Below the pieces are notes generated by a model that was given only the letters and a program-made list of their open reading frames with translations, did not search any database and had not been told where the DNA came from. This document shows, in pieces, positions 8,530 to 32,181 of a stretch of 64,000 nt of DNA (positions are counted from its first letter, which is position 1; every line of letters starts with the position of its first letter). The stretch spans positions 54,377 to 118,376 of the forward strand of contig CAVPMW010000010.1 of NCBI GenBank assembly GCA_963706515.1, written 5' to 3'. Both the position numbers and the translations under genes were made by a program. Source of the stretch: an uncultured Chloroflexia bacterium. GTDB taxonomy: Bacteria > Chloroflexota > Anaerolineae > Anaerolineales > UBA4823.

Positions 8530-10237
8530 TTAAGGAGCAGCCGGCTCTCCAGCCTGTTTCATGTTGTAGATCCAGGCGTAATCGAAACCATCGATCGTGA
8601 CAGTATATTCAGGGGTTAGCGTCTGGAAATATGCCAGGATTTTCGGACTGGGTAACTGCCGTTGCATCTGAAGGAAATATAGTACGACATAATCTGCCTG
8701 TTGTAATTGTTCGAGCGATATGTTATCGTCCATAAACTTGGATGTGCCGTGGAAAAAATATGAGAAACTACCCTCGTTGTACCAGGAAATCACCTTTAGC
8801 TTTCTCACGTGGGGTTTCGTGTTGAGATATTCAGCAGCTTGCTCCAGTTCTTCTCCCCGCCCAATCATCATAACCTCTTTCGCCCGCTGAATGCCTCCCA
8901 GGAGAGGATTGTAATAATTGTAAAAATATGGATAGGTGCTAAAAACCCCGATGGATTGGACAAGAACCAGACAGGTCAGGATAGCCCAAGTGCCAATCGT
9001 TGCCGTCCTGGCAGAGGCGATCTTGGTCAAACCTCGGCTCACAGCCTGAATGATGGTGTACCATCCAAGGGCTGCAATAAGGATCATCGGTCCTTGAATG
9101 GGGAGCTGGTAACGGTCGAATTTTTTTAAGCTCAAACTGATAAAGATGGTGAATAGTATAGAAAATGCGAGCAAGACGAGTAAATAGCGTTTCTGCTCTT
9201 CGGTAAGCTTTAGTATTTTTGGCAAGAACAAACTCAATATTGCCAGGAAGATTCCAATTGAAACCACTCCGGTGATCCGCCAGATAAAAGATACCGGATA
9301 GAAATACCAGGCTGAATTCGCCGCTATAATAGATTGTTCCATTGAAGAAAGTACTGTGATCGTGACCTTCTACTGCATAGTCGGCAGCCTGGGTGAAGAC
9401 CTGCCTGAGAGTCCAGATAGGATTGACCCACATAGCGGGCCAGAGCAGTACAAAGATCAGGCACGCAACAAACAGCCAAAGCAGAACCGGCTTGACCGAA
9501 CTCCAGATTACTCTTGCATTCCGCTGATCAGGACGGCGCCAAGATTGGATGAGGTTTAGTAATACCAACGCGCCGATAAAAGGGATCAAAAAGAAGGCAG
9601 GCGATTTTGTCAGCCAGCTTAGCCCTGCAACAACAGCGGATACGAGCAGGTCAAGCGTTCGCCGAGATTGGTACATGAATCTCATGAAAGCTAATAAGGA
9701 AAGGAGCATCAGTGCACTGACCAATCCGTCTAGATGTAACAGCCGGGAAAGGGAAATGGTGAAAGGGTCCAAAGCGATCAGGAGGATGCCGAGCAATGCC
9801 GGGATTAAACCGAACAGCTTCAAGCAATACCAGAATGTCAAAACTGACGCGATTACAATCAACAAGACGGTGAAAAATCGCCCGCTTGCCAGGACATCAA
9901 CAGCATCAACCAGATGGTTACGCAGGAAAAAATAGAAATTCGGTAGACCATGGAATTGTTGGTCGACCTTTTTTACAAAATCGGGGTACTGCCATAAAAA
10001 TCCGGCAGTACCTGCCCAGGTAACTAATACGCCAGGGTGCTCTTTTTGGTATGTGTTTTTGAAATCTCTGACCGATAATGCCTGGTAGAAATTCCCAGAC
10101 CGCATCAGCCAAAGGGGTTCATCGACCGTCACGCCGCTATCCAGGCGTAAGGCGCGCGGGAGAAGTAAAGAAGCAATTACTACTCCGGAAATCAATATCG
10201 AAAAAACGATTTTTTTGAGGTTAATTTTTCCAAACAT
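8530..10237 (-). pseudogene. GT-C (PMT_2/ArnT-like) glycosyltransferase, tandem paralog copy 1, frameshifted
   Basis: ORFs 8939..10255 and 8530..9342 together align end to end with the intact 568-aa neighbour. They read FFNGTIYYSGE / SAWYFYPVSFIWRITG versus FFNGVIYPSGDAAWFFYPIAFIWRITG. One extra base lies within GAATTC 9314..9319. Start trimmed to ATG 10237 (MFGKINLKKIV). Confidence 0.75.
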
Positions 10238-10282
10238 CGATCGATTACCCGTCAAGCAAATGACCGGTTAGTTTGTGAAATT

Positions 10283-10390
10283 TTATTCGACCCTGGAGCA
10301 TCTCAGCTGGCTTTTCATAGCTGGGTCATGCTCGATTTGCTCGAGCATGATCAGATCGCGGTCGGATTTTGCTGCGGATTGGTTATCCAT
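10283..10390 (-). pseudogene. truncated duplicate of the regulator 5' end (35-codon remnant)
   Basis: 10322..10390 is near-identical to 8387..8455 and encodes MDNQSAAKSDRDLIMLEQIEHDP. It then diverges to a stop at 10285..10283. Confidence 0.8.
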
Positions 10391-10393
10391 ATG

Positions 10394-10417
10394 CTAAAAT
10401 TCAGCAGTTGAATTATA
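10394..10417 (-). promoter_or_regulatory. candidate -10 box plus palindromic operator (copy 2, upstream of the regulator remnant and GT-C copy 1)
   Basis: CTAAAATTCA-GCAGT-TGAATTATA; palindrome at 10398..10414. Confidence 0.55.
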
Positions 10418-10465
10418 GCATGGGATAAGCTTCGACTTCAATATCAGCTACCGGCAGTAATAGAG

Positions 10466-12172
10466 TCAGGGAGCAACCGGCTCCCCAGCCTGTTTCATAT
10501 TGTAGATCCAGGCATAATCGATGCCATCGATCGTGACAACATGTTCCGGTGTCAGGTTTTGGAAATATGCCAGGAATTTCGGACTGGGCAGCTGCCGCTG
10601 CTTTTGGCGGAAGTATAGGACGACGTAATCGGCATGTTTTATTGTCTCAAGGGAGGAAAACGCGTCAATTGGTTTTGAATTTCCGCGGAAAAAATACGAG
10701 AAACTGCCATCGTTGTACCATGAAAAAACTTTCAGCTTTCTAACATCAGGCTTCGTGTTAAGATATTCAGCAGCCTGGTCCAGCCCTTCACCACGGCCTA
10801 TCACCAAAACCTCTTTTGCCCGCTCAATGCCTCCCAGGAGAGGGTTGTAATAATTATAAAAATACGGGAAAGTTTTCATAACCCCTGTGAATTGCACAAA
10901 GACCAGGCAGATCAGGATAGCCCAGGAGCTAATTGCGGCTGCCCTGGCGGAGGCAATCCTCGACATTGCCAACGACACGGCCTGAATGAGGGCATACCAT
11001 CCCAAGGCTGCGACGAGGATCATCGGTCCCTGGATGGGGAGGAAATAGCGATCGGACTGTTTCAAACTCACGCTGATGAAGAGGGTGAAGAGGATTGAGA
11101 AGGCAAGGAGGACGAGTAGATACCGCTTCTGCTCCTGGGTAAGCTTGAGTATTTTGGGCAAGAACAAACTCGCAACCGCCAGGAGGATGCCGATCGTGAC
11201 TACTCCGGTGATGCGCCAGATGAAAGCTATCGGATAGAAAAACCAGGCAGCATCGCCGCTTGGATAGATTACCCCATTAAAAAAAGTAACGCTGTCGTTA
11301 CCTTCAACCGCGTAGTCGGTAGCCAGGGTGAATACGCGGCGGAGCGTATCGAGCGGAGCGACCCACATTGCGGGCCAGAGCAGAACAAAGACGGCGCAAC
11401 CAACCAGGAACCAGAGCAATGCTGGCCTGATCGCCCGCCAGATTACTCTCGCATTCCGCTGATCAGGATGGCGCAAGGACTGGACGAGGTTGAGGAAAAC
11501 CAGCGCACCGATAAAAGGGATCAAAAAGAAGGCAGGCGATTTGGTCAGCCAGCTGAGCCCTGCAGCTACCCCGGAAACGAGCAGGTCGAGCATCCGTCGA
11601 GACTGATAAAAGAACCGCATGAAGGCCAATAAGGAGAGGAGCATCAAGGCGCTGACCAGGCCATCCAGGTGCAGCAGACGGGAAAGGGAGATGGTGAACG
11701 GATCAAAAGCGATCAAGAGAATCCCGAGCAAAGCCGGCATTAAACCGAGCAACTTCCAGCAGTACCAAAACGCCATTATCGAGGCGACAACGATGATTAA
11801 AACTGTAAAAAACCGTTCGCTCACCAGGATATCGAGAGGCTCGACCTTGCGAGTACGCAGGAACAATTGTAAATTCCCCGGACCACGGAATTGGCGGTCG
11901 GCCTCTTTTACATAATCGGGATACCGCCATAAAAATCCGGCAGTCCCTGCCCAGGTGACCAACACGCCAGGGTGCTCTTTTTGGTATGTGTTTTTGAAAT
12001 CTCTGACCGATAATGCCTGGTAAAAATTTGCAGACCGCATCAGCCAGAGGGGTTCATCGATCGTCACTCCGCTATCCAGGCGTAAGGCGCGCGGGAGCAG
12101 CAGGGAGGCAATGACCACCCCGACGATCAATATCGAAAAAACGATTTTTTTGAGGTTAACTTTTTGCAGCAT
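10466..12172 (-). CDS. GT-C (PMT_2/ArnT-like) glycosyltransferase, tandem paralog copy 2 (intact)
   Basis: 568 aa and polytopic. The first-loop acidic motif ...LDSGVTIDEPLW... is typical of GT-C enzymes. It has a soluble C-terminal domain of about 130 aa. Confidence 0.7.
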   Translation of the reverse strand: MLQKVNLKKIVFSILIVGVVIASLLLPRALRLDSGVTIDEPLWLMRSANFYQALSVRDFKNTYQKEHPGVLVTWAGTAGFLWRYPDYVKEADRQFRGPGNLQLFLRTRKVEPLDILVSERFFTVLIIVVASIMAFWYCWKLLGLMPALLGILLIAFDPFTISLSRLLHLDGLVSALMLLSLLAFMRFFYQSRRMLDLLVSGVAAGLSWLTKSPAFFLIPFIGALVFLNLVQSLRHPDQRNARVIWRAIRPALLWFLVGCAVFVLLWPAMWVAPLDTLRRVFTLATDYAVEGNDSVTFFNGVIYPSGDAAWFFYPIAFIWRITGVVTIGILLAVASLFLPKILKLTQEQKRYLLVLLAFSILFTLFISVSLKQSDRYFLPIQGPMILVAALGWYALIQAVSLAMSRIASARAAAISSWAILICLVFVQFTGVMKTFPYFYNYYNPLLGGIERAKEVLVIGRGEGLDQAAEYLNTKPDVRKLKVFSWYNDGSFSYFFRGNSKPIDAFSSLETIKHADYVVLYFRQKQRQLPSPKFLAYFQNLTPEHVVTIDGIDYAWIYNMKQAGEPVAP

Positions 12173-12230: not shown

Positions 12231-13724
12231 TTAAGAGCCGCGATATACACTTCGGAGCAGGTAGAAATGCGATTTTCCCCACGAGTATATCGTGCGGTAA
12301 TCATTGCGCAGATGGTCGCTCAGTTTCTGAAATTTAAACCGCCCCAGGAGTATCTCAGCAGGCTGATATTCGTCCACATATTTGATGATGTCGTCCTCAG
12401 ATAATGTACCGGTGGTGAGACGTTTCTCTGAGATAACTGCAAGCGGTGGGGGAATGGGCAATCCAACCCGGAAAGCGTACATCGGGACGTCAGTAAAGAT
12501 CCAGTTTGAATTCGCTGCATACTGGCGCAAGTTACTAAGGATTTCTTCTTCATGCCCGGCAGGCTTAGCGACAGGCTCGATGAGATAAGCAGGCAGTCGA
12601 AAATTATAGTAAATTGGTGGGACCCTGGCAACTAAAATAAGCACAAACCCGGCGATTGAAACCAAAGCAATTAAAGTCTCCCATTGTATCAAGGAGTGGA
12701 GAGAGCGGTTCCTGAGCAATGTGAGCACTGCTTCGGCAATGCCAATGGCTGCCAGCATAGCCAGGGGTACCGTTACTAATAGCTGGTGGTGGTACCAGAC
12801 TGGAGTGTGGAAAGCGAGCAGCAGATAAGCTGTAGCCGACCAGGCGAGCAGGTAAAAGGTGAGCCACTTTTTTTGAATAATAGCAAAGACAGAACCACAG
12901 AAAGCGAGAAGGACGAAGGGCCAGGAGGGGCGGATATAAGCGGTTATGGATAGGGTTTTACCGAGAGATTCATAGAGCTCAACTGTCCGGGCAGCCAGAT
13001 GGGTGTTGAAAAGCTCCGGTAAATAGGCTGGTCCGATGAAAATGAGGGAGACCAGCAGAGATAAAGCAGTGAATGATACGCCCCAAAGGAATGCTGGCGT
13101 CAGCCTGCTGCGCCAAATGTGTTTTTGGTTGGAGGCTGGCTGATAATCCATGAGTATGCCCAACAGGAATATTGGTACGAGGAATAAGGTGAAGATCTTC
13201 GTAAAAGCAGAAAGACCTAATGCCAGCGCGGAAATGAAAAGCCAGAAATTCCGGCGGGAGGTGTGCCAGGCGCCCAATGCCAGCAAAGATAGCATAGCAA
13301 ATGTTAGCGCAGGTAGACCAATCATCACCGAAACGGATAGGGAAGCATAAAAAGGGAGGAGTGCAATCAGCAGAACAGCAAAAAGCGCATGAAGAGTTGA
13401 CCAGGAGAGGCGGACGAACAGTGCGGCTGAAAGCAGAAGGATTGAGGAGAGAATGAGCACGAATGTCCTGGCAATATTGATATCAAAACGGGTCAGCCGG
13501 AGAGTGATTGCCAGCAGGTAGGTGAAGACCGGAGGCTGGTCGCTCCAGATTTGAGAGTAGAGTGGAAAGCCGCGGGCGAGCATCAGGGCTTTGATGGCAT
13601 TGATGCCTTCATCCGGATCGAACTCGAAGCGAGCGCGAAACGGGTAGAAAAGGAAGATCAATAGAAAGAATGCAGCAACAGAAATGAATATAAGTACTTC
13701 CGGGCGTGCAAGCCGGGAGAACAC
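12231..13724 (-). CDS. GT-C (PMT_2/GT39-like) glycosyltransferase
   Basis: Polytopic. The first loop reads ...FEFDPDEGINAIKALMLARGFPLYSQIWSDQPP... (DxDE-type GT-C motif). The start is uncertain: GTG 13724 (GAAAGGAAA upstream, no overlap) is preferred over ATG 13802 or 13916, which overlap the upstream gene. Confidence 0.65.
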   Translation of the reverse strand: MFSRLARPEVLIFISVAAFFLLIFLFYPFRARFEFDPDEGINAIKALMLARGFPLYSQIWSDQPPVFTYLLAITLRLTRFDINIARTFVLILSSILLLSAALFVRLSWSTLHALFAVLLIALLPFYASLSVSVMIGLPALTFAMLSLLALGAWHTSRRNFWLFISALALGLSAFTKIFTLFLVPIFLLGILMDYQPASNQKHIWRSRLTPAFLWGVSFTALSLLVSLIFIGPAYLPELFNTHLAARTVELYESLGKTLSITAYIRPSWPFVLLAFCGSVFAIIQKKWLTFYLLAWSATAYLLLAFHTPVWYHHQLLVTVPLAMLAAIGIAEAVLTLLRNRSLHSLIQWETLIALVSIAGFVLILVARVPPIYYNFRLPAYLIEPVAKPAGHEEEILSNLRQYAANSNWIFTDVPMYAFRVGLPIPPPLAVISEKRLTTGTLSEDDIIKYVDEYQPAEILLGRFKFQKLSDHLRNDYRTIYSWGKSHFYLLRSVYRGS

Positions 13725-13758
13725 AAGTTTCCTTTCAGAATGCCGATTGCCGGTTGTG

Positions 13759-15861
13759 CTATTGTCCAAGCGAATCGCCTGTGGGGGTACACGTGCCCGC
13801 ATCGGTCCGGGGTGCAAGGATCTGGACGTGGATAGATTTGAGGGTTTTTTGTGGTTGGTAATAGCACAAGATCTGCGTTGAAACCTGATCCACCCAGACA
13901 TCATTTTCTTCGCCAAAGGCTTCTAAGCTGCCTTTATGCCGGCGGGAGAGGGGTTCGGAAATTATGAGCGAAAAGCGGTGGTTGGATATATCTTGATAGA
14001 ATTGGTTTAGATACTCCTGATTGCCTCCCATGACCATTTCCATCAGATAAGTTTTTTCATATTCCGGCACGAGAGTAATATCCTTCAGAAAATGGAAAGT
14101 AAGCAGCTGTCGCTCGGTTAATAACAGGACTTCTCCGCCGCTTTTGTTTAGGTGCTTAATTTGTCGTTTCAGTTGTTCGATAGCCTGCATTTTTTCCGCG
14201 GTATAGCGCCGCGTAATTGGCTGGGCAGTAGCAACCACGAAATAAATCGGCAGCAGCAGAGTGATGATTAAGAGAATGTAGCTGACAGCTGCAAAAGCTG
14301 CCGGCAACGGTTTTAGCGGTTCTTTCTCGGTATCCGATCCAATCGGTTCGGGAACTACTTTTTGGAAGAGGAAGAAGGCGGTTATGGTCAATAAAAATGT
14401 CAGGTATGCATCCAGGTTGTGCAGGTTGCTGCCGCCACCAATCTTTACGCTCACCAGCAAGCCGCCGGCAAATAGGACGCCCAGGATCAAGCCAAGCCCG
14501 AGGTAGCGGAGAGGGTGATACCATCTCCACTTGCCTGCCAGGCCTATCGCAATCAGTCCGAAAAATGGCAGTGAAACGATGATCGCTGCCGGAAAAATAC
14601 CCCAGCGGTAAGTCGGGTTTGGCAGCAGACGATACCAGAGCAGGGAGGAGCTGAAACTCGTTGAAAATTGGTCGGGTGGAATCCCAGACCAAACTATGTA
14701 CAGCTCATGGAATACGTATGCGGTGATCAGACCCAGCACCCCCCACACGACCGGTTTTAACAGATATCGCCAGAAACCCAGCTCGCTAACGGGTTGTTTG
14801 AGTAAGTAGAGAGTCACTGCCAGCATGGCTGGGATTGGGAACCAGTTCACCCGGCTCAGCCCCACCCAGGCGGAGGCGATCAGGATAACCAACAGGGTTT
14901 GCCATTTCTTGCGCAGGTTGAATCCAAATAAAACCAGGATCACGGGAACCAGGAGATGGTAGTACACCGGCGGGATCAATACGAATAAAAACACCCAGGC
15001 AGCGACCAAAACTCCGTACAACCGGTCTTTGAGTGACAGCTGCCTCACGAGTGCTACTCCGGTGAGCAGTGCAGTCACTGCCCACAGGATCTGCTGCCAC
15101 AAACGGTGAACGAGGATGGGTGTATTGGGGATTAGGAATGGAGCCGCTTCCATCAAATAACGGGTTGGATGCAGCGTTGGAGGGGGAACGTGGAATCCAT
15201 AGATCCACTGCGATAGATACAGCGAGGCAAAATAATAGCGACTCGCCTCGGACCAGTCCAGCGAGAATGGATAGCTCGTTATTGGTTCTATAAGCGCGGC
15301 GATCTCGATAATTACGCTGCCTAACAGCAGTGCGCTGATCAGTATCAAGCCCAAATTGCGCTTCAGACCAGCAGCCTTCAGAAAGAATCCCCCGCAAAGC
15401 GTAGCCATCCAAAGTAAAGCGAACCGGATATACGTAGGATCGAACAGCTCAGCCTTAGGACCTAAGAGCAAGAATGTGTATCCACCGAATATCAGAACGA
15501 AGAAGAAATAATTGAGATAGCCTAAACGCTGCAGGATGTGGAGGATCCTGTAATAAATCGAAATCAAATTATCTTTCCAACGCGTCCAGGTCAGAATGAA
15601 GAGAATCCCAGTCAATAGAATTCCAACAATTCCGATGACCAGGACAGCGATCCAGCGCAGCGAGCTAAAAAGCGCGCCTATCTCGTAATAGGGTCCTAGA
15701 AGACGAACTAACCCTACTATCTCTGCGAAAAGGGTGACTGCCAGGATGCCGCGCAGGTAGCTTAGCTGCCTGGAATGCGCGTCAGAATTCGGAGAGAGCT
15801 TTAATAATTCGGTCAAGGGCTTTTTTGTCCGGAGCGGAAATCTCCCGTTCGTTATGGCCAA
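13759..15861 (-). CDS. 700-aa polytopic membrane protein with soluble C-terminal domain, unclassified (GT-C-like or polymerase-like?)
   Basis: Long ORF with more than 12 hydrophobic segments. It is a paralog of 15852..17870. Shared blocks are YPFSL.WSE, YRL.PNPTY, KIGGG.NLHN.D and a C-terminal RQLLTF...LVP.YEK.YLM...RFSLII.EPL...FGEEN..WV. Confidence 0.6.
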   Translation of the reverse strand: MAITNGRFPLRTKKPLTELLKLSPNSDAHSRQLSYLRGILAVTLFAEIVGLVRLLGPYYEIGALFSSLRWIAVLVIGIVGILLTGILFILTWTRWKDNLISIYYRILHILQRLGYLNYFFFVLIFGGYTFLLLGPKAELFDPTYIRFALLWMATLCGGFFLKAAGLKRNLGLILISALLLGSVIIEIAALIEPITSYPFSLDWSEASRYYFASLYLSQWIYGFHVPPPTLHPTRYLMEAAPFLIPNTPILVHRLWQQILWAVTALLTGVALVRQLSLKDRLYGVLVAAWVFLFVLIPPVYYHLLVPVILVLFGFNLRKKWQTLLVILIASAWVGLSRVNWFPIPAMLAVTLYLLKQPVSELGFWRYLLKPVVWGVLGLITAYVFHELYIVWSGIPPDQFSTSFSSSLLWYRLLPNPTYRWGIFPAAIIVSLPFFGLIAIGLAGKWRWYHPLRYLGLGLILGVLFAGGLLVSVKIGGGSNLHNLDAYLTFLLTITAFFLFQKVVPEPIGSDTEKEPLKPLPAAFAAVSYILLIITLLLPIYFVVATAQPITRRYTAEKMQAIEQLKRQIKHLNKSGGEVLLLTERQLLTFHFLKDITLVPEYEKTYLMEMVMGGNQEYLNQFYQDISNHRFSLIISEPLSRRHKGSLEAFGEENDVWVDQVSTQILCYYQPQKTLKSIHVQILAPRTDAGTCTPTGDSLGQ

Positions 15862-17870
15862 TCTTCACCACTATAGAATTGGAAATTTGGCTCAGAAATC
15901 GCCGGTGCAGAAGAAAGCAGCTCCTGGACCATTAGATCACAGTTTTCCACATTTTCCCTGGGAATGAGCATTTGGACTTTAACTTTCTTATAGAGTTTAA
16001 AGGATTTGTAGTAGCAAAGAACCGGATTCGATACCCACTTTACCCATGCAGCATTTTCTTCGCCAAAGCTATCACCTGTATCCGAAATGTTGGTATATAA
16101 CGGTTCAGTGATAATCAGGCTAAAACGCTTTTTTGCCAGGTCAGCATAAAATTGTTGGAAATATGCGCTGTTTCCGGCCATAGCCTGATCCATCAGGTAA
16201 TTCTTTTCGTAATCTGGAACCAGGTTGGCAGAGCGAATATTCCCAAAAGTAAGCAGCTGGCGCTGATCGATGAACAGAACTTCTGTCCCAGCCTTGTCTA
16301 CGTTTGTCTTAATCTTATTGAGCGCTTTTTGGACGTACTCCTGTGGGGGAAAAATAAGCGGCCTAGTTTGGGTAGATACACTCCAGATCGGAACCAGGAA
16401 TGCCAGGACGGCAAATGTCTTGACCCAGTTTGGGAGAGCCTGGAAAGAGGGTAAGCCCCCTCTTCTCAAAAACTGTGAGATCAGGATGACGATCGTGATC
16501 AAGAACATATCCATGTTGTGGAGGTTATTACCCCCGCCGATCTTAATACTGGCGACTAAGCCTGCGATCAGGAAAGCGAAACAAACACCAAATGAAACAA
16601 TAATCTGTGTCCAGGTAAGCTTCCACCGCCGAGAGGCTGCCAACCAGCAAAGAAGTAAGATCACTGGACCAGTGGCGATGAGCAAAGAGAGCAAGATTCC
16701 ATTTGGATAAGTAGGATTGGGGAAAAGTCTGTAAAAAAGAAGGGGCTGAGATAACGACAGGGTGGATTGGCGTAAATTTGTCCAGCGCTGGTAGTTGCTC
16801 AGCAGTCCGGGAATGCTGCCGACCAGTCCAATGATAATGGCAGGCAGTATTCGTGAGAACCAGCTCCCTGACCTTTGCGGAAAGTATTGGTCAATATCGA
16901 TCAATCCAGCCCAGACACCGGGTGAGAGCGACCAGGTCCAGCGGCTGAGACCCGCATAGAGGCTGGCTATCCCCGTCGGGATGGCGCGCTTCCAAAGCTC
17001 GACCCGGTCGATCATCACGGTCAGGATAGCTGCAATAAGCAGCGGTGCGTAGATAGGACCCTGGTACAGGAAGAGCGCTAACCATACTGCCAGGGCGAAC
17101 CGGGTGATGCGCGGCTGGGTCCCTTTCGCGCAGATCCATCCGAAAATCAGCGGTGGAAGGATCCAAAGCAAAGCATTCCATAAGCGATGAAACCAAATCG
17201 GTAAGTTTGGGATCAAAAACCAGATCCCCCACAGCCCGAAGCGACCAGGAGAAAAATAAGGGATCGTCAATGAATCCTGGGTTGGATAAAGGGATTTAGC
17301 GAAGATTAGCGAGTAATCGTACAGACGGTTCCCTTCGGACCAGGTCAGTGAGAACGGGTAATTCACTACGTAGACCAGCTGCCCTGCAGCAAGAAACAGG
17401 TACGCGCTGAATAGCATGGTTAATATAAGCCGGAATGAATATTTTGATTGGGCGAGGCTGGGGAAGAATAGACTTGTGACCAGTAAGAATGGGATGAGCA
17501 GGATGCTCCTAAACCCGGGGGAATCGGTCACCCCGCGGCTGATTCCCGAAAAGGAAAGATAGATCGGGAATAACAGAAGCGCGACGTATATCAAGATACG
17601 CAGCCAGTATTTAAGCTTGAAGGGCAACCCGGCAATTTGGTCGAGAGTACCCCGGATATTGGCTGATTTTTTCGAAAGAGCCCAACCGATCAAAACCAAA
17701 CAGGTCAGAATGGCAAAAACCCAGCCAAGCTCGAGGATAATTTTCAGGCGAGGAGATACGCCGCCATCAATGACCTGCTTTACCGCAAAACTCAACAGGC
17801 AGGCATATGCACCGATAGCAGCGATAAGGATAATTTTAAGGTAGCGATTGGTCGTTGTTTGCACTTCCAT
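15852..17870 (-). CDS. 672-aa polytopic membrane protein with soluble C-terminal domain, unclassified (paralog of 13759..15861)
   Basis: Same conserved blocks as its neighbour. 10-nt overlap with the downstream paralog. Confidence 0.6.
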   Translation of the reverse strand: MEVQTTTNRYLKIILIAAIGAYACLLSFAVKQVIDGGVSPRLKIILELGWVFAILTCLVLIGWALSKKSANIRGTLDQIAGLPFKLKYWLRILIYVALLLFPIYLSFSGISRGVTDSPGFRSILLIPFLLVTSLFFPSLAQSKYSFRLILTMLFSAYLFLAAGQLVYVVNYPFSLTWSEGNRLYDYSLIFAKSLYPTQDSLTIPYFSPGRFGLWGIWFLIPNLPIWFHRLWNALLWILPPLIFGWICAKGTQPRITRFALAVWLALFLYQGPIYAPLLIAAILTVMIDRVELWKRAIPTGIASLYAGLSRWTWSLSPGVWAGLIDIDQYFPQRSGSWFSRILPAIIIGLVGSIPGLLSNYQRWTNLRQSTLSLSQPLLFYRLFPNPTYPNGILLSLLIATGPVILLLCWLAASRRWKLTWTQIIVSFGVCFAFLIAGLVASIKIGGGNNLHNMDMFLITIVILISQFLRRGGLPSFQALPNWVKTFAVLAFLVPIWSVSTQTRPLIFPPQEYVQKALNKIKTNVDKAGTEVLFIDQRQLLTFGNIRSANLVPDYEKNYLMDQAMAGNSAYFQQFYADLAKKRFSLIITEPLYTNISDTGDSFGEENAAWVKWVSNPVLCYYKSFKLYKKVKVQMLIPRENVENCDLMVQELLSSAPAISEPNFQFYSGEDWP

Positions 17871-18822
17871 CCTGAGCAGCCTGATTTATGTCTACATTTG
17901 ATGCACCGGAGAAAATCCGCGGCAGCCACAATGCTCCGGGAAAGGTAACCGTTAATGCGATCAAGCGCGTGATCACCGCCAGCGCTGTGGCCTGCTCGAT
18001 ATTGGCTCCGAGTTTTAGATACAGTGTTGTAATAGCGACTTCACGTACGCCCAGCCCATTTACTGATATCGGCAGCATGGTAATGAAATAGGTGATGGCG
18101 GTCGCGCCCATAACCTGATATAAAGCGACGGAAATTCCCAGCCCACGGGCTATCAGCCAGATTGCAACCATCACCACAAATATTGAAAACCAGGATACCA
18201 GGAAGGCAGCCGCGAGGATGAAAGGGCGTTTAAGCCAGATCGAAAATGCATCGCGTGTTTTGATCAGCCAGCGGTAAACCCGAGCGGAATATTTTTGGAT
18301 AACCCCAATTCTCTGAGTAAAGAATGCGGAGGCTGATATAGCACCTGGAAGAGAGTTACCGGTTAGCAGTGAGCCATTAACTATAAAGGTAAGCATGGAT
18401 AGAGGCAGGATGGTTACGAATGCTGCCACATTCACAAATCGATCAAGTGCGACCGATGCCAAACATATCGCCCGGTTATCGGTATAACGGAATAAGCTGG
18501 CGAAGCGAATAGCATCTCCCCCGACTGTTGATGGTAAAAAATTCGAAACAAAAGCCCCGCTCAGGCTGATCTTAAATGTCTGCCGGAATGGGATTTGTAC
18601 GGGTGGCGCGTGCAGTAAGATATACCAACGCAATGCATTTGCCACCTGACCGGTGAAATACAGCCCGATTGCCAGCAGCAAGGATACCCTGGGAATATCG
18701 GATATGTAGAGAACGACGATCTGCCATTTTTGCTGAGTAAGCAGCCATAAAAAGATGAGCAAAGAGATAATCGTACCTGCCCAGCGGAGCCATTTAAACC
18801 GGGATTGATTTTGTTTAAACAT
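17836..18822 (-). CDS. UPF0104 / LPG_synthase_TM (MprF flippase-domain-like) membrane protein
   Basis: 328 aa, about 8 TM segments. Motifs ...ANALRWYILL... and ...SNFLPSTVGGDAIRF... are typical of this family. Confidence 0.7.
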   Translation of the reverse strand: MFKQNQSRFKWLRWAGTIISLLIFLWLLTQQKWQIVVLYISDIPRVSLLLAIGLYFTGQVANALRWYILLHAPPVQIPFRQTFKISLSGAFVSNFLPSTVGGDAIRFASLFRYTDNRAICLASVALDRFVNVAAFVTILPLSMLTFIVNGSLLTGNSLPGAISASAFFTQRIGVIQKYSARVYRWLIKTRDAFSIWLKRPFILAAAFLVSWFSIFVVMVAIWLIARGLGISVALYQVMGATAITYFITMLPISVNGLGVREVAITTLYLKLGANIEQATALAVITRLIALTVTFPGALWLPRIFSGASNVDINQAAQDGSANNDQSLP

Positions 18823-18837
18823 TAACGAAGCTGCGTT

Positions 18838-19884
18838 TCATCCTTGAGTGACAATTACTTTCAGTCGATCGGATATCATTTTTTGGTGTTGGTGAATAAC
18901 CTTGCCCGATTTTGGTAATTCAAGCTCAATCAGCGGGATAGACTGACCGAGTCTTTTTAGTATCTGTCTTTCAGAGTCCTTCCAATTCTGGAGCCAGCCA
19001 GCCAGATCCGTAACTGCACCGGATTTTTGAAGGAGCGTGAGGAAATGGCGTGCCTCGTAAAAATTCATTTCAATCAGGGATTCAAGCGTGCTTTCTTGAG
19101 GGGCTACTGGATGAAACTCCGGAATTGACCGGTCGGATGATCGTTTCAAGATAATGATTGCTCCCGGAATGGCCCTCATGCAAATCTCACGTCCGGGCCA
19201 CAACTGATGGACGTCCACCCGCACGGGCCATTTGATGTTGTCCTGGCTGAATCGGCGCAAGCCGCCGTACATCTCGAGGCGTAATCGCTCCGATCTTGAG
19301 AGCTGGTTTTTCACGCCAGGCACCCATACCAGCAGATCCTTATAGAGATGAGACCGTGTCAGGTACGCGAGGCTTTCAGGACCTGCGCGCAGGAAGACGT
19401 AATCGTCGGCATGAGGCGACCAGGTCTGATCCGTCTCTGCCAGGAGCAGCGAGGTAAAGGTGGTCTTTCCGCTGCCGCCTCTGCCGGTAAAAATCAAGCT
19501 GTGGTCCTGGCGTGTGACGGCGCCTGCATGGAGCAATAAAACACCTTGATTGCTGGATAAATAGCGCAGGCTGGGGTGGACGAGCATGTGATGAACCATG
19601 GGAACGGACAATTTATTCCCGATTACATCGATGTCCACCTGGTCGGGGGATACTCTTAGCTGATAAGCCCAGCGGGCCAGCGTTTTATGCTGGTGAAATG
19701 AAAACCCTGCAGGGGCAGAGAAAGGACCATCTTTTCTGCTGAAATTTAGATTTATCCGGGCAGAAGAGGGCACGTAAACGCTGGGGATATGGTACTGATA
19801 TTCACGAAGGTAGAAATCTGCATCTTCTGAATTGTCTGTCGTTACGGCTAAATCCACAAGCTGATGAAAGCTAAAAAAAGTCAT
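18838..19884 (-). CDS. HPr-kinase-like P-loop protein (HprK-related kinase family)
   Basis: 348 aa. The segment ...GVLLLHAGAV...LIFTGRGGSGKTTFTSLLL...HADDYVFL... parallels the HprK/P core VLITG.SG.GKSE.ALEL...GH.L.ADD. Confidence 0.55.
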   Translation of the reverse strand: MTFFSFHQLVDLAVTTDNSEDADFYLREYQYHIPSVYVPSSARINLNFSRKDGPFSAPAGFSFHQHKTLARWAYQLRVSPDQVDIDVIGNKLSVPMVHHMLVHPSLRYLSSNQGVLLLHAGAVTRQDHSLIFTGRGGSGKTTFTSLLLAETDQTWSPHADDYVFLRAGPESLAYLTRSHLYKDLLVWVPGVKNQLSRSERLRLEMYGGLRRFSQDNIKWPVRVDVHQLWPGREICMRAIPGAIIILKRSSDRSIPEFHPVAPQESTLESLIEMNFYEARHFLTLLQKSGAVTDLAGWLQNWKDSERQILKRLGQSIPLIELELPKSGKVIHQHQKMISDRLKVIVTQG

Positions 19885-21041
19885 TGTTCTACAGGTATTG
19901 CCTTTACTGGCTCATTGACCACAATAGATTCGAAGAGCTCTTCATAGCAATCCACGATTTCTTTGATATCTAATTTTCGCGCAATATTTATGCTTTCTTT
20001 CCGGAACCCTTCGAGCAAGCCAGGGTCAGTCAGCATAGCCGCTAAATGTTGGGAAAAAAGGAACGGCTGATCGAGTGGAACACAATAACCGTTGATTCCA
20101 TTTTCGATGATCCCAGAAAAACCCCCGATTTGAGTGCCTAACATAGCCAGCCCCATGGCTAACGCCTGGATACCTACGATCGGAAATCCTTCGTACAAAG
20201 ACGGCAGGAATAAAATGTCGCTTTTCCGGTACCATTCCAGCACTTCATCCGGAGTGATCCAACCGGTGAGCACTATTCGATCTTGAAGCCTGAGCATCTC
20301 GATCTCACGCAGGATTTCTCCCCGCATCTCCCCATCCCCAATCATGGTGCACTGCCAATCAAGCTCTTTAATCGCGGCGAGCGACCTGACCACCTGGAGT
20401 GGATTTTTTTGGGGGGTCAGCCTGCCGATAAACAATATATGAGGTCTGCTGTTTGGCTGGATCGAGCCCTGCCAGAGTGACTCGAGATCAACGCCGTTGT
20501 GAATAACCTGGACAGGGACGGGATAGCGTTTTAACGCCAGCGCCCGGGTGTACTCACTCACTGCGACAATTTTCGTGGCATTTTTCCATATTGGTGGAGT
20601 CAGCGGAAAGATCCAGCGGAACCAGCGATCCGTTTTATCAGGCACACCGCCGGGGATATCACCGAGATGCACGGTGAGTACGTATGGGATGCTGGTCAGG
20701 CGGTGCCAGGCCCAGGCTGGCGCTCCACCAGGTACTGCGAAGTGGGCATGGATCACATCCGGTCGCCATTCCTGGATCAATCTGAGACCCTTCGCTGTTG
20801 CATTGCAGATATAGGCTGCCATCGATATTAGGCTGGCTTGGTATGCCTGCTGGCGCAAGGCTGATAAGCGGTATATCCGGATCCCGTCGACCAGCTCAAC
20901 CTTCGGCATGCCTCTCATCCCAGAAGTTAATATCGTAACCTCGTGTCCTTTTTTCACCAGGCCGTGACATAAATCATAGGCAACCCGACCGCCTCCGCCG
21001 CCAATCGGGGGAAATTCATGAATGGACACCAATATCCGCAT
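19881..21041 (-). CDS. GT4 family (GT-B) glycosyltransferase
   Basis: 386 aa. N-terminal MRILVSIHEFPPIGGGGGRVAYDL and C-terminal ...LFLPSLYEGFPIVGIQALAMGLA... (E-x7-E region). Confidence 0.8.
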   Translation of the reverse strand: MRILVSIHEFPPIGGGGGRVAYDLCHGLVKKGHEVTILTSGMRGMPKVELVDGIRIYRLSALRQQAYQASLISMAAYICNATAKGLRLIQEWRPDVIHAHFAVPGGAPAWAWHRLTSIPYVLTVHLGDIPGGVPDKTDRWFRWIFPLTPPIWKNATKIVAVSEYTRALALKRYPVPVQVIHNGVDLESLWQGSIQPNSRPHILFIGRLTPQKNPLQVVRSLAAIKELDWQCTMIGDGEMRGEILREIEMLRLQDRIVLTGWITPDEVLEWYRKSDILFLPSLYEGFPIVGIQALAMGLAMLGTQIGGFSGIIENGINGYCVPLDQPFLFSQHLAAMLTDPGLLEGFRKESINIARKLDIKEIVDCYEELFESIVVNEPVKAIPVEQ

Positions 21042-21048: not shown

Positions 21049-22020
21049 TCAGGCGGTGGTGACATTCTTGCGGATTACCTTGCGGATGATGTACGTAGGT
21101 TTGTCCTGCGATTCATGGTATGTGCGGACTAAAAGCTCGGCGATTAAGCCCATTAAAATCGATTGGAAACCGAGGATGAACAGCATAATGCCGACTGCGA
21201 ACAAGGGTGATTGGATGACGGATACCGAGAAAAGCAGCCGCCTGGCAGCCAGGATAAACAGGATTACCGAACTGATAAACATCAGGATCAGCCCCGCACC
21301 GCCGAAAAGGTAGATCGGTTTGTTGGAGTAGCTGATGAAAAATTTCGCCGTGAACAAATCCAGAATAACTTTAACTGTCCGGTTTAAGCCGTACTTGGTC
21401 TTGCCATAGCGGCGGGGGTAATGATGGACGGGCACCTCGATTATTTTTGCTCCTACTGAGCTGGCATAAGCCGGAATGAAGCGATGCATTTCACCATACA
21501 AGCGGAAACCGGTCAGCACTTCACGGCGGTAAACCTTTAATGTGCAGCCATAGTCGTGCAAGTGCACGCCGGTCACCGTGGAGATCAAGCCGTTTGCCAT
21601 GCGCGAAGGGAGTGTGCGCGTGATGAATGCATCCTTGCGGTTCTTGCGCCAGCCGCTTACGACATCGTAGCCCTCATCTATTTTATCCAGCATCATCGGG
21701 ATGTCGTCAGGATCGTTCTGTAAGTCTGCATCCAGCAAGACGATCAAATCTCCCAGAGCATAATCGATCCCGGCAGCGATCGCCGCGGTCTGGCCAAAAT
21801 TGCGCCGGAATGAGATTACAGAGATATGATCGGGATCGCAGGCTGCCAGGTTTCCAAGGATTTCCAGGCTTTTATCGGAGCTGCCGTCGTCCACGTAGAC
21901 TACTTCCCAGGAGCGTGGAAGCGGTGTGAGCGCCTCTGTTATTTTATTATTCAATAACGGAAGGTTTTCTTCTTCGTTATATACTGGAATAACCAGCGAG
22001 ATACTTGAAATGTTATCCAT
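21049..22020 (-). CDS. GT2 polyprenyl-phosphate glycosyltransferase (GtrB/ArnC/DPM1-like)
   Basis: 323 aa. Motifs LVIPVYNEEENL, VVYVDDGSSD, VLLDADLQNDP and GW...R.D. Two C-terminal TM helices (IYLFGGAGLILMFISSVILF..., FAVGIMLFILGFQSILMGLIAEL), as in GtrB/ArnC. Confidence 0.8.
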   Translation of the reverse strand: MDNISSISLVIPVYNEEENLPLLNNKITEALTPLPRSWEVVYVDDGSSDKSLEILGNLAACDPDHISVISFRRNFGQTAAIAAGIDYALGDLIVLLDADLQNDPDDIPMMLDKIDEGYDVVSGWRKNRKDAFITRTLPSRMANGLISTVTGVHLHDYGCTLKVYRREVLTGFRLYGEMHRFIPAYASSVGAKIIEVPVHHYPRRYGKTKYGLNRTVKVILDLFTAKFFISYSNKPIYLFGGAGLILMFISSVILFILAARRLLFSVSVIQSPLFAVGIMLFILGFQSILMGLIAELLVRTYHESQDKPTYIIRKVIRKNVTTA

Positions 22021-22033: not shown

Positions 22034-23923
22034 TTAATCCGATATTCTCTGGAAAATCCTCAGGCGGTATTTATCTTTACACGGTGTAGTTGAGCTTGAG
22101 CGAGGCAGTTCATCAAATTGACCGGATTCCAGCCGCTGCTTCCAGTCATCGGTGTAACGGCGTTCTTCAATAATAACATAATCAGCCTGACTGAACCATT
22201 GATTGGCGAGCTCCGAGTTCCACAACCCGAACTTGCGCAGCTCATCCGGGTCTCCCCCAATCTTATCTGAATAAGCGCCGTTGATTTGTGGAGAAAAGAG
22301 CTCGACCCCGGGCGCTTGCAGCAGCGGGACAACAGAAAGGCTCCCTTTCCAGTATACCTTAGAACCCGGAGGGATCACCCTGGCGAGATAGCGTCCGACC
22401 GCTTCATTGGATGCGATCACGTCTCCAGAGCAGTCGTGGACATTCTGGTTAGCCAGGACGACTGTCGGCGAAAGAAGCAGGCCAAAAATTAGCAGCCCAT
22501 TTGCGATAAACAGACCATAGCTCGCTTGAATGTCTCTGTTCTTTCTCAGCCGTCGATAAATCAGCCAGACCCCGACCAGCAGTAAAACCCCAACGATTGC
22601 ACCGGCGAGGGTAGGGATGAGCCACCCGGTCAATGTGCGCGGCAGCCCAAAGCGATTTTCCAGCACTCCCCATAAGGAAATGCCGCCAGGCATCAGGTGA
22701 AGATTTTTAACTCTGGGCATGGGCAGCTCTACCAGGGCAACCCCGAGATCCTGGGAGCTTCCTAAGCCAATACTGGTGGTAATCAAGATCACCAGAGCCG
22801 CGCAAATCCAGCTGAACCAGCCAGCCTGCCTCGATTGCCAGGCACGGTTTATGAGAATTACCAGGAGCAAGCCAAGCGGTGCGAAAAAAGTTATATAGCT
22901 GGTGTAACAATATACACAATAATTCTTGGTTAGTGAGGCCCAAATATGTGCCAGCCAGAGCGAGCCAAATAATAGGCTGATGAAGATGCCCATCTTGCGG
23001 TAGGAGCTGTACTTCCAGTGTCTGGAAAAGAAAAACGGGAGACTGAAGATAAGGAATGCCGTCAAAGGGATGAAATTCGCACGATATCCCTGCCAAAAGC
23101 TCAGCCAGCGATCTTCAAACGTGATCGATGGATCCCACACGTTACTAACCCTGTGGAGGAGGCGGAACTGGCTGAGAAAAGGGGTCAGTGCGGGTGGCAG
23201 CCAGGACGCCCAAAGCCGCATAATGTTTGGCCAGAAGACAGCGTGCCCGATGAGGACGGTCAGCAGACAGACTATCGTGGAAATGAAACCGGCTCGGACG
23301 CCGTGTTGCCAGAATATATAGAAGAGCAAGAAGGGGATTACCGGCAGCATATTCATACGGGTGAGCAGCATTGCTCCGGCTAGAAATGATCCTAAGGCGA
23401 GCTGCCAGGTTTTCCGCTCTTCAGCCAGCACCAATACCAGAATCCAGATCAGCATGCAGGAGATCAGGACCTGAGACACGGCGATGCTGTAGGTTTTGAT
23501 CAATGCAGGGTTGAGGGCAACTGCCGCGACCGCGCCCGCCGCCCACCACTCACCTCCCAGCCGGCGTGCCAGCAGCCACAGACCTACCAGCATCAGGAGC
23601 CCCAGGCAGATAGCGAGATAGCGCCCCGTTCGTAAGCCAGGTCCGAACACCTTTTCGATGAAACCTGGAATCAGATAGGATAAAGGCATCTGGTTGGTCC
23701 AGGGTCCATAATCCTGGAATGGGAAATATTTTCCGGTCAGGTATAGATAACCTTTATAGAGGTAAGCTCCCTCATCCAGGATGGATTCCTGATTGTGGGC
23801 GTAGAACACAGTCTGGACAAGATAAACCATCCCAGCCAGCAGTGCGGCTGCCTGTGCTACCCAAGGGGCTGCTTTAAGGCGCTCAATAAGTGATAAGGGT
23901 TTGGAAACTGCGGTGTCTACCAA
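22034..23923 (-). CDS. GT-C (PMT_2/GT39-like) glycosyltransferase, 629 aa
   Basis: Polytopic. First loop ...SILDEGAYLYKGY...; soluble C-terminal domain. Roughly half-identical by eye to 24991..26859. TTG start. Confidence 0.7.
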   Translation of the reverse strand: MVDTAVSKPLSLIERLKAAPWVAQAAALLAGMVYLVQTVFYAHNQESILDEGAYLYKGYLYLTGKYFPFQDYGPWTNQMPLSYLIPGFIEKVFGPGLRTGRYLAICLGLLMLVGLWLLARRLGGEWWAAGAVAAVALNPALIKTYSIAVSQVLISCMLIWILVLVLAEERKTWQLALGSFLAGAMLLTRMNMLPVIPFLLFYIFWQHGVRAGFISTIVCLLTVLIGHAVFWPNIMRLWASWLPPALTPFLSQFRLLHRVSNVWDPSITFEDRWLSFWQGYRANFIPLTAFLIFSLPFFFSRHWKYSSYRKMGIFISLLFGSLWLAHIWASLTKNYCVYCYTSYITFFAPLGLLLVILINRAWQSRQAGWFSWICAALVILITTSIGLGSSQDLGVALVELPMPRVKNLHLMPGGISLWGVLENRFGLPRTLTGWLIPTLAGAIVGVLLLVGVWLIYRRLRKNRDIQASYGLFIANGLLIFGLLLSPTVVLANQNVHDCSGDVIASNEAVGRYLARVIPPGSKVYWKGSLSVVPLLQAPGVELFSPQINGAYSDKIGGDPDELRKFGLWNSELANQWFSQADYVIIEERRYTDDWKQRLESGQFDELPRSSSTTPCKDKYRLRIFQRISD

Positions 23924-29607: not shown

Positions 29608-29617
29608 CGCCTGCCCA

Positions 29618-32156: not shown

Positions 32157-32181
32157 GGATGGCGAAAACCTGGCTGGCAGG

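Follow-up and report, generated by a model that had tools for sequence, protein, structure and literature searches.

The analysed stretch of 64,000 nucleotides, from here on termed the window, contains two adjacent open reading frames that code for large polytopic membrane proteins and raise the question of what kind of proteins these are and which role they might play in the surrounding glycan locus. In a preliminary description made from the nucleotide sequence, they were regarded as paralogs of 672 and 700 amino acids that could not be assigned to any known family, with a novel GT-C class, a polymerase or an acceptor-recognition component being considered as possible identities. The two genes are:

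15852..17870, minus strand: paralog A, 672 aa, ATG start, subfamily A of a family with predicted GT-C_A fold
13759..15861, minus strand: paralog B, 700 aa, putative TTG start, subfamily B of the same family

A family of paralogs without annotated relatives

Both reading frames are present as previously given, and their relationship as paralogs is confirmed by a sequence identity of 34% across 539 aa (BLASTP, E=6e-79). The overlaps of 10 nt between A and B and of 35 nt between a flippase-like gene and A, which had been noted before, are correct for starts defined by the ORF rule, and the putative TTG start of B falls within an N-terminal region that is not conserved. Orthologs of A in other genomes share 53–57% identity in the core, orthologs of B form their own set with 49–53% core identity, and all family-invariant residues are also found in B. 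A and B are real, ancient paralogs of one previously unannotated protein family; what distinguishes them is probably the linkage, the donor or the acceptor position.

In a search for relatives, we found no relevant Pfam match at E<=1 for A, B or any of 38 family members, with neither the PMT and PMT_2 models (PF02366, PF13231) nor the STT3 model being hit in the 38 sequences, and no relevant NCBIfam match for A or B. Single sequences did not match any PDB sequence, a profile of the 38 sequences resulted in 0 hits at E<=10, and an hhalign comparison with the four PMT_2 paralogs of the window gave a probability of 7.9%. In its sequence, the family has no relationship to PMT_2/ArnT, to STT3 or to any of the Pfam models, in agreement with the initial failure to assign it. 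The preliminary description had made its novelty depend on the lack of a confident match to a characterised, unrelated family, and Pfam, NCBIfam and the PDB sequences contained no such match. The family itself comprises 1,166 representative clusters (50% identity) at E<=1e-3 without bleeding into other GT-C families. Its best 80 genomic loci all originate from Anaerolineae (Chloroflexota), the only group in which it has so far been seen among these loci.

The conserved blocks quoted in the preliminary description were all recovered in the translations of both proteins. These include YPFSL(T/D)WSE (A 171–179, B 197–205), KIGGG(N/S)NLHN(M/L)D (A 443–454, B 473–484) and the motifs YRL(F/L)PNPTY, RQLLTF, LVP(D/E)YEK(N/T)YLM, RFSLII(T/S)EPL and FGEEN..WV. 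The possibility that they constitute low-complexity artefacts, which had also been raised, can be dismissed based on an alignment of 241 family sequences, where the residues W177, S178, E179, R182, R229, R310, R381, K443, GGG445-447, H451, N452, D454, R537, Q538, Y554, E555, D577, R582 and E605 are conserved in at least 95% of cases, with the motifs being kept by both subfamilies. In the same alignment, residues 1–150 of A are not conserved.

Predicted topology and fold

The AF2 model of paralog A (pLDDT 90.2, pTM 0.90) shows 15 transmembrane helices in a 4+11 arrangement, consistent with the more than 12 hydrophobic segments counted before. Its parts, as defined by the model and by conservation, are:

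17442..17870, minus strand: variable N-terminal extension (A 1–143), four TM helices and one amphipathic helix ahead of the GT-C module
16368..17441, minus strand: conserved 11-TM GT-C core (A 144–501), helices from the AF2 model and conservation
17199..17375, minus strand: first extracytoplasmic core loop (A 166–224), two juxtamembrane helices (179–190, 208–219), carries YPFSLTWSEGNR
17334..17336, minus strand: codon of Glu179 (A), candidate acid/base for catalysis, first residue of JM1 at its N-terminal tip, from conservation and helix position
15247–15249, minus strand: Glu205 (B), the equivalent of Glu179 in A
16701..16796, minus strand: extracytoplasmic loop after core TM7 (A 359–390), short helices, motif QPLLFYRLFPNPTY and invariant R381
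16509..16544, minus strand: motif KIGGGNNLHNMD (A 443–454) in the external loop that joins core TM9 to TM10; B 14410–14445
15891..16364, minus strand: extracytoplasmic alpha/beta C-terminal domain (A 503–660) with the RQLLTF, YEK, RFSLII and FGEEN motifs; B about 13807–14244

The N-terminal extension shows a column conservation of 0.02–0.34, and in homologs of about 780 aa it contains a further ~120 aa of transmembrane helices. The core has its N-terminus inside and its C-terminus outside, with the positive-inside rule being satisfied at every loop and all motifs falling on the outer side. This includes KIGGGNNLHNMD, which with a mean column conservation of 0.83 is more strongly conserved than any other block in the family; its location follows from parity together with the positive-inside rule. 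Some 20 charged or polar residues that face outside remain invariant in more than 240 sequences and in both ancient subfamilies, a pattern that is typical of an active site.

A comparison of the model with the PDB in Foldseek places GT-C_A enzymes on all ranks from 1 to 15 (prob 0.99–1.00, E 6e-5 to 3e-2), including STT3 (6ezn/8age), AftA (8if8), PglB (6gxc/5ogl/3rce) and ArnT (5ezm), followed by a sharp fall to noise (prob <=0.13). The likeness is confined to the level of the fold, with TM-scores of 0.30–0.45 and an rmsd of 10–17 Å. GT-C_A enzymes have TM1–7 and the juxtamembrane helices JM1 and JM2 in common, JM1 carries an essential catalytic Asp at its tip, and in AftB 11 TM helices are combined with a periplasmic cap (PMC12041299). 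In A, the first core TM helix (144–165) is followed by an external loop of 60 residues (166–224), from which six more TM helices lead up to the next long loop on the outside. By DSSP, loop 166–224 contains the two helices 179–190 and 208–219, and the positive-inside rule places it on the outer side. The first residue of helix 179–190 is acidic, but a glutamate (Glu179) instead of the described Asp; it is invariant in the 38 members and conserved in at least 95% of the 241 sequences. Thus, of the identities considered initially, a novel GT-C class gains support from a model matching only GT-C_A enzymes in the PDB and from a juxtamembrane loop with an invariant acidic residue.

The soluble C-terminal domain, previously estimated to contain about 130 aa, is present in the model with a larger size of about 150–160 aa, and it was not found outside the architecture of this family. 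Modelled alone (pLDDT 89.8), its best Foldseek matches are the C-terminal domains of AglB-S2, AglB-S1 (3vgp) and STT3, which are weak despite a prob of 0.87–0.99 (TM 0.40–0.46); for AglB-S2 (3vu0), prob is 0.98–0.99 at E 1e-2 with an rmsd of about 7 Å. The earlier view that this domain cannot be assigned consequently holds for its sequence but not for its fold, where it shows weak matches to the globular C-terminal domains of AglB/STT3.

Locus organization and proposed function

The neighbouring genes in the window comprise:

17836..18822, minus strand: flippase-like membrane protein (LPG_synthase_TM/TIGR00374; Pfam E=8.5e-36, NCBIfam flippase-like domain), directly upstream of A
19881..21041, minus strand: GT4 (GT-B) glycosyltransferase (Pfam Glyco_transf_4/Glycos_transf_1)
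21049..22020, minus strand: ArnC/GtrB-type GT2, polyprenyl-phosphate sugar synthase, TM helices at its C-terminus (full-length structure matches, NCBIfam)
12231..13916 and 10466..12172, minus strand: two PMT_2-type GT-C genes directly downstream (Pfam PMT_2/PMT)
22034..23923 and 24991..26859: further PMT_2-type GT-C genes

The GT2 matches the solved structures of ArnC (9hwj, E=2.7e-65) and GtrB (5ekp, 1.4e-40) over its full length and is ArnC- and PgfS-like by NCBIfam. It provides the polyprenyl-phosphate sugar synthase found in three-component systems.

We have analysed synteny in 56 loci with a length of 15 kb or more, counting neighbours within 10 kb. The most constant partner is the GT4, which is found in 39/56 loci and as immediate recognised upstream neighbour in 27. 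Any GT2 is present in 39/56 loci and an ArnC-type GT2 in 23 (41%), Wzt in 21 and the flippase-like gene in 17 (30%); in seven loci, the latter was recognised as the neighbour upstream of the family member. The most widespread form of the locus has the order GT4 – family – (GT2/methyltransferase) – MarR – epimerases – Wzm/Wzt and contains neither an ArnC-type GT2 nor a flippase-like gene nearby. The family genes sit in conserved glycan loci with GT4, ArnC/GtrB-type GT2, flippase-like, PMT_2 GT-C and Wzm/Wzt genes, and the proposal that A and B share a pathway with their neighbours is supported by synteny conserved over the 56 loci.

In light of these results, we consider it probable that A and B are catalytically competent integral-membrane glycosyltransferases of the GT-C_A type that define a new sequence family and may use a polyprenyl-phosphate-linked sugar as donor. 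In enzymes of this class, sugars carried by a lipid are attached to cell-surface glycans or to proteins at the outer face of the membrane. The results themselves provide the fold, the topology, the pattern of conservation, the synteny and the nature of the GT2, while catalysis, the donor, the acceptor and the part played by individual residues can be described only tentatively. Each protein combines a variable block of four N-terminal TM helices with a conserved 11-TM core and an extracytoplasmic alpha/beta cap, exposing to the outside the invariant residues Glu179 (at the tip of JM1), Arg182, Arg210, Arg229, Arg310, Arg381, Lys443, His451, Asn452 and Asp454 of the core and Arg537, Glu555, Asp577, Arg582 and Glu605 of the cap. 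In the proposed mechanism, the ArnC/GtrB-type GT2 encoded in the locus would synthesize a polyprenyl-phosphate-linked sugar on the cytoplasmic side, which the neighbouring flippase-like protein would then flip across the membrane. Its phosphate may then be held by the Arg/Lys cluster at the interface with the outer leaflet, while Glu179 would act as catalytic base or nucleophile in the transfer of the sugar onto an acceptor bound under the C-terminal cap, most likely a cell-surface glycan built by the same locus with its Wzx and Wzm/Wzt export routes.

Several observations argue against this assignment. The structural likeness does not go beyond the fold, and the acidic residue of JM1 is a Glu and not the described Asp. 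Pfam, the PDB and the hhalign comparison did not link the family to any characterised GT-C by sequence or profile. An ArnC-type GT2 and a flippase-like gene are close by in only 41% and 30% of the loci, and the most constant partner, a cytoplasmic GT4, is left unexplained by a three-component model. Moreover, other GT-C-like proteins in the loci could be the true consumers of the lipid-linked sugar, and such polytopic proteins are also encoded in nearly all loci that contain an ArnC-type GT2 and a flippase-like gene. In favour of the assignment, one locus (L078) combines both of these genes with a family member and has no other large polytopic ORF. Finally, in view of the many invariant Arg and Lys residues and the best fold matches to STT3/AglB, a pyrophosphate-linked donor would fit equally well.

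The last point leads to an alternative that we regard as rather unlikely, in which the proteins act as STT3/AglB/PglB-type oligosaccharyl- or polysaccharyl-transferases or ligases that transfer a whole glycan en bloc from undecaprenyl-pyrophosphate after its export by Wzx or Wzm/Wzt, with a protein, lipid or the cell wall as acceptor and the C-terminal domain as acceptor-binding unit. STT3 subunits are the top fold matches of the whole protein, and the isolated C-terminal domain again matches AglB-S2/S1 and STT3 first, although with TM-scores below 0.5. The commonest locus encodes a Wzm/Wzt ABC-transporter pathway, which needs a downstream en-bloc transferase; a pyrophosphate would be well matched by the six Arg/Lys residues that are invariant on the outer side, and the strong conservation of the cap suggests a conserved acceptor. 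Conversely, the WWDYG motif is absent, since the conserved positions of the C-terminal domain, with L, R, Q, L, F, Y, E, K, M, D, I, F, E and P as invariant residues, contain nothing of a WWD type, and neither the STT3 model nor any oligosaccharyltransferase (OST) sequence is matched even by profile. OSTs such as PglB contain a metal site formed by three carboxylates, whereas the TM module of the family has only two invariant acidic residues (E179, D454). The presence of at least two paralogs per locus together with several other GT-Cs also fits better to a stepwise addition of sugars than to a single final ligation.

A role as Wzy-type polymerase of a repeat unit flipped by a Wzx of the same cluster appears very improbable. 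Such proteins are notoriously diverse in sequence and polytopic, and the window contains a Wzx (Polysacc_synt, 30807..32234) with no recognisable Wzy. However, Wzx is found within 10 kb in just 7/56 loci, and in 8/56 an orphan protein of 612 aa following Wzx-GT4 is a better positional candidate. The polymerase option is further disfavoured by the absence of Wzy, WaaL, SEDS or RodA/FtsW structures among the 50 Foldseek matches listed and of Wzy_C or O-antigen-ligase HMM matches in Pfam for A, B and the 38 members. Similarly remote is a non-catalytic scaffold, transporter or, as considered initially, acceptor-recognition subunit that has retained a GT-C fold: the Glu in place of the canonical Asp and a so far only predicted enzyme activity might speak for it, but not the ~20 polar or charged residues that are invariant on the outside, including an acidic one at the canonical catalytic position.

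Relationship to known systems

With the mycobacterial enzymes AftB and AftA (CAZy GT89/GT85), the family shares a first external loop with two juxtamembrane helices, an acidic residue where JM1 begins, a core of 11 TM helices and an extracytoplasmic cap at the C-terminus, and its genes are likewise accompanied by several other GT-C genes in a locus for cell-envelope glycans. It differs by the lack of sequence or profile similarity, a Glu in place of Asp, four extra variable N-terminal TM helices and a cap consisting of a small alpha/beta domain of another type, and its hosts are Anaerolineae instead of Actinobacteria. STT3, AglB and PglB (GT66) provide the best Foldseek matches of the full-length model as well as of the isolated C-terminal domain (the short central-core domain of AglB-S1/S2) and similarly contain a TM domain followed by an external globular domain. 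Still, TM-scores are just 0.33–0.46, the family has neither a WWDYG or DK/MI-type motif nor an STT3 HMM match, and no counterpart was identified for its motifs WSE, KIGGGxNLHNxD, DQRQLL, YEKK and EEN. Its 15 TM helices (4+11) with an EL1-like loop after the fifth also contrast with the 13 of GT66, where EL1 follows the first. PMT_2/ArnT proteins (GT39/GT83) have the fold class (with ArnT 5ezm as Foldseek match), the locus and the expected membrane face in common with the family, from which they are separated by the low hhalign probability (7.9% for the PMT_2 paralogs of the window) and the lack of PMT/PMT_2 HMM hits in the 38 members.

Finally, three-component systems (GtrC-type, YfhO, GacL and the GT136 protein ORF12; PMC11127046) resemble the family in the co-location with an ArnC/GtrB-type synthase and a putative flippase. 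The latter is in our case an LPG_synthase_TM (MprF-like) protein and not an established GtrA, Wzx or MATE, and the association is found in about 30–40% of the family loci. ORF12 of Citrobacter youngae is described to contain a beta-rich CBM after TM11 (PMC11127046), as opposed to the alpha/beta domain found here. Nevertheless, before its characterisation it was also an orphan GT-C, which was recognised from its predicted fold and context and became the founding member of GT136 (PMC11127046), and it thus offers a precedent for the recognition of an orphan GT-C on these grounds.

A compact, unannotated protein family of the Anaerolineae

The two open reading frames proposed in the preliminary description were found on the minus strand of the window as:

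15852..17870 (-): paralog A, 672 aa, ATG start
13759..15861 (-): paralog B, 700 aa, putative TTG start, which falls within an unconserved region

With starts set by the ORF rule, the reported overlaps of 10 nt between A and B and of 35 nt between the upstream gene and A are correct. Both proteins share 34% identity across 539 residues (E=6e-79), and all motifs quoted initially were located in A and B alike by translation from window coordinates. A-type and B-type orthologs in other genomes show about 50-57% core identity compared to the 34% between A and B. Loci in other genomes often have one gene of each type, and 14 of 56 loci contain two family ORFs. Judged by sequence, A and B are thus ancient paralogs, and since both types retain every invariant residue, both are likely active, with different specificities.

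Low complexity, named at the outset as an explanation that would undermine the conserved blocks, and chance similarity were both ruled out as their source by the relationship between A and B and by the conservation of the motifs to at least 95% in an alignment of 241 sequences. The residues that individually reach at least 95% in this alignment, in the numbering of A, include W177, S178, E179, R182, S187, R210, R229, W231, R310, W313 and R381 as well as K443, G445-447, H451, N452, D454, R537, Q538, Y554, E555, D577, R582 and E605, and residues 1-150 are essentially without conservation.

The view that the proteins cannot be assigned by sequence was borne out, as neither A nor B has a match in Pfam, NCBIfam or PDB sequences. 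A Pfam scan of both paralogs and 38 members at E<=1 returned scattered noise only (NPL4, SAYSvFN, TrbL and others), with no model recurring among the 38 members and no match to PMT, PMT_2, STT3, YfhO, Wzy or DUF models. The NCBIfam scan of A and B gave nothing, nor did searches of PDB sequences by either phmmer or the 38-sequence profile. Homology was not detectable in hhalign comparisons of the family with the four intact PMT_2 GT-Cs of the window (probability 7.9%) or with its 612-aa orphan membrane protein (probability 0.4%).

Searching 5.8 billion proteins, we obtained at least 381 clusters, of which the named ones are all termed 'hypothetical protein' and none carries a precomputed Pfam domain. 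With the 38-sequence profile, 1,166 proteins were detected among 1.84 billion representatives at E<=1e-3 and 759 still at E<=1e-30, which delineates a compact family (about 1,170 clusters at 50% identity) that, at the level of sequence, does not bleed into other membrane-protein families. In a GTDB scan covering one genome per species, we found at least 576 relatives, with the best 80 loci all assigned to Anaerolineae/Anaerolineales or to unclassified Chloroflexota MAGs, the cultured Leptolinea tardivitalis YMTK-2 among them. Extended members proved uninformative as functional clues: forms of about 780-820 aa contain additional N-terminal TM helices only, the extended protein P0242 shows an additional weak alpha/beta-hydrolase match and the fusion protein P0248 (1,313 aa) joins a family member to another orphan polytopic protein.

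Predicted fold of the membrane core and the external domain

An AlphaFold2 model of A obtained from the 38-sequence alignment (pLDDT 90.2, pTM 0.90) was compared to the PDB with Foldseek. Ranks 1-15 were occupied exclusively by GT-C_A enzymes, namely yeast and human STT3, AftA, PglB and ArnT (prob 0.99-1.00, E 6e-5 to 3e-2, TM 0.30-0.45), below which the matches fall abruptly to transporters with prob <=0.13, except for weaker matches to PimE and the C-terminal domain of AglB. The predicted fold, which matches GT-C_A enzymes and thus speaks for a novel GT-C class among the options considered initially, is very probably of the GT-C_A type.

Based on the modelled helices and the positive-inside rule, A is predicted to contain 15 TM helices with its N-terminus inside and its C-terminus outside. 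TM helices 1-4 are variable and the conserved core begins with the helix at 144-165. An external loop of 60 residues comes next and holds two short helices (179-190 and 208-219); six TM helices lead from there to another structured loop on the outside (359-390), and four more to the C-terminal external domain. [quoted passage not shown] The helix at 179-190, which resembles JM1 of GT-C_A enzymes, starts with invariant E179 of the WSE motif, and the remaining invariant polar residues are all predicted on the outer face. By its placement, E179 may be the positional equivalent of the catalytic Asp of GT-C_A enzymes.

The C-terminal cap domain (residues 503-660), modelled alone, folds into a small alpha/beta domain (pLDDT 89.8). 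In the PDB it most resembles the C-terminal globular domains of AglB-S2 (3vu0, prob 0.98-0.99), AglB-S1 (3vgp) and yeast STT3, followed by generic Rossmann-like methyltransferases. With TM-scores of 0.40-0.46, the likeness to STT3 and to the two AglB proteins, which are short archaeal oligosaccharyltransferases (OSTs), is a consistent if weak signal of the model. The WWDYG motif that defines OSTs is absent from the cap. A domain-only profile search for the cap recovered fragments of family members only and thus did not reveal the domain outside of the family. Apparent stand-alone cap proteins were rejected as contig-end fragments or split genes of indel-rich long-read assemblies whose neighbouring genes are broken up as well. 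In the long contigs concerned (L083, L084 and L001; ENA ERZ250394xx-ERZ250395xx), which come from long-read metagenome assemblies, many genes are broken into short ORFs, such as one GT4 in pieces of 84, 141, 145 and 94 aa, and such shattering leaves the protein database with C-terminal domains that only seem to be 'stand-alone' proteins.

Genomic context in the window and in related loci

Both genes reside in one long minus-strand glycan-biosynthesis region extending from about 2.9 to 34.6 kb of the window.

Gene order of the region in the direction of transcription
First (-): UDP-glucose dehydrogenase, epimerase, Wzx, GT4, 612-aa orphan membrane protein, GDP-mannose dehydratase-like enzyme
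Second (-): PMT_2, flippase-like protein, second PMT_2
Third (-): GT2, GT4, HprK-like P-loop protein, flippase-like protein, A, B
Fourth (-): two further PMT_2 genes, frameshifted PMT_2 copy
Fifth (-): MarR, epimerase, Wzm, Wzt, capsule-synthesis-like protein

The GT2 (21049..22020) is related over its full length to the solved enzymes ArnC (E=2.7e-65) and GtrB (E=1.4e-40), which identifies it as a polyprenyl-phosphate sugar synthase. Genes of the LPG_synthase_TM family ('flippase-like', MprF-type) at 17836..18822 (-) and 23993..24973 (-) each immediately precede a GT-C gene, A in the first case and a PMT_2 in the second. This pairing, found twice in the window and recurring in related loci, suggests that the LPG_synthase_TM family may serve as lipid-linked-sugar flippase partner of GT-Cs in Anaerolineae.

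Further features of the window were observed as follows:

27922..29760 (-): 612-aa polytopic orphan without Pfam or NCBIfam matches or profile similarity to the family; its place downstream of Wzx-GT4 and its homologs in 8 of 56 related loci make it a positional candidate for the missing Wzy-type polymerase
18838..19884 (-): 348-aa protein between GT4 and flippase-like gene with weak P-loop/HprK-related-kinase-A similarity only (NCBIfam E=7e-5, far below the cut-off) and homologs in just 3 of 56 related loci
8530..10255 (-): overlapping ORFs of 438 aa (8939..10255) and 270 aa (8530..9342), which between them match N-terminal and C-terminal portions of the adjacent PMT_2 (10466..12172) at nearly every residue; apparently a tandem duplicate split by a frameshift, owing either to pseudogenisation or to an error in sequencing
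55744..55817 (+): one tRNA gene, the sole Rfam match at gathering threshold

Partners within 10 kb of the family in 56 independent loci of at least 15 kb
GT4 homolog: 39 of 56, immediate recognised upstream neighbour in 27
Any GT2: 39 of 56
ArnC-type GT2 (same strand, C-terminal TM helices): 23 of 56
Flippase-like gene: 17 of 56
MarR: 23 of 56
Wzt: 21 of 56
Wzm: 17 of 56

These conserved partners lend good support to the suggestion that A and B share a pathway with their neighbours. B-type genes tend to be preceded by a flippase-like gene (for example in L003, L012, L023, L025 and L039) and A-type genes by either such a gene or a GT4. The surroundings of the family in L056 and in the Leptolinea locus L045, where the family gene lies at 9809..11863, include sugar-modifying enzymes, GT4/GT2 enzymes, PMT-type GT-Cs and an LCP ligase.

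Unlabelled polytopic neighbours were considered as divergent family members and gave no matches in hmmsearch. Among them is a second recurrent orphan family (about 670-700 aa, 11-14 TM helices) that the family HMM does not detect and that adjoins family genes or lies 5-6 kb downstream (L012 12331..14331 and 15987..18008, L034 15205..17226, L039 11070..13061 and 14634..16655, L044 11611..13725 and others); P0248 is a fusion of one such protein with a family member. L003, L004 and L018 contain a third orphan group (about 850-930 aa, 13-17 TM helices).

Proposed function and relation to known glycosyltransferases

As full best explanation, we consider it probable that A and B act outside the cytoplasm as GT-C glycosyltransferases with a polyprenyl-phosphate (monophosphate)-linked donor. 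E179 would act as catalytic base or nucleophile, the cluster of Arg, Lys and His residues would form a phosphate-binding site and the cap domain might provide the acceptor site. In the chief alternative reading, they would be OST-like transferases that move an Und-PP-linked glycan, exported by Wzm/Wzt or Wzx, en bloc. This is favoured by the leading rank of STT3 and AglB among the fold matches, the rich basic cluster and a widespread minimal form of the locus that lacks a nearby ArnC-type GT2, whereas the missing OST motifs and the presence of several paralogs and other GT-Cs per locus argue against it. Only in L078 and, arguably, L025 does an ArnC-type GT2 with a flippase-like gene have the family as its one polytopic partner, and context thus does not separate a monophosphate from a pyrophosphate donor. 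It appears unlikely that the family constitutes a bacterial sister lineage of STT3/AglB/PglB devoid of the sequon-reading WWDYG motif. Such an enzyme would take a complete glycan, exported by Wzm/Wzt or Wzx, from undecaprenyl-pyrophosphate and attach it en bloc to an acceptor other than Asn, be it a sheath or S-layer protein, a lipid anchor or the cell wall; if true, monoderm-type Chloroflexota would have a glycan ligase of a new kind, whose conserved primer would be built by the GT4 partner. There is little support for A and B being a polymerase or non-catalytic.

GT-C enzymes make key glycans of the cell envelope, as in mycobacterial arabinan, lipid A modification and protein N- and O-glycosylation. 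Anaerolineae are abundant filamentous bacteria of wastewater sludge, sediments and soils, whose cell-surface glycans are, to our knowledge, almost unstudied, and our literature searches returned nothing relevant on a GT-C family described for Chloroflexi or Anaerolineae. Activity of A or B, if shown, would found a new CAZy family and offer a first handle on these envelope glycans. Already now, proteins listed as 'hypothetical' can be annotated by the hundreds as putative GT-C glycosyltransferases, and the family could help to clarify how OST-type cap domains relate to other members of the GT-C superfamily. To a glycobiologist this would not be astonishing, because orphan GT-C families keep appearing: such families are still being founded, as for GT136 in 2024, whose founding member was an orphan GT-C known from predicted fold and context (PMC11127046).

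What is new is the sequence family, previously unannotated in Pfam, NCBIfam and PDB, while its structural and mechanistic class is itself known. The family is large, clade-specific and distinct in its motifs, with a Glu at the tip of JM1 (WSE), the KIGGGxNLHNxD signature and an AglB-like cap without WWDYG. The proposed function of A and B as monophosphate-dependent GT-Cs fits the logic of three-component systems combining a GT2 synthase, a flippase and a GT-C (reviewed and extended in PMC11127046). At the level of sequence, the family falls outside GT66 and GT39/GT83, and by its predicted structure it belongs with the GT-C_A class.
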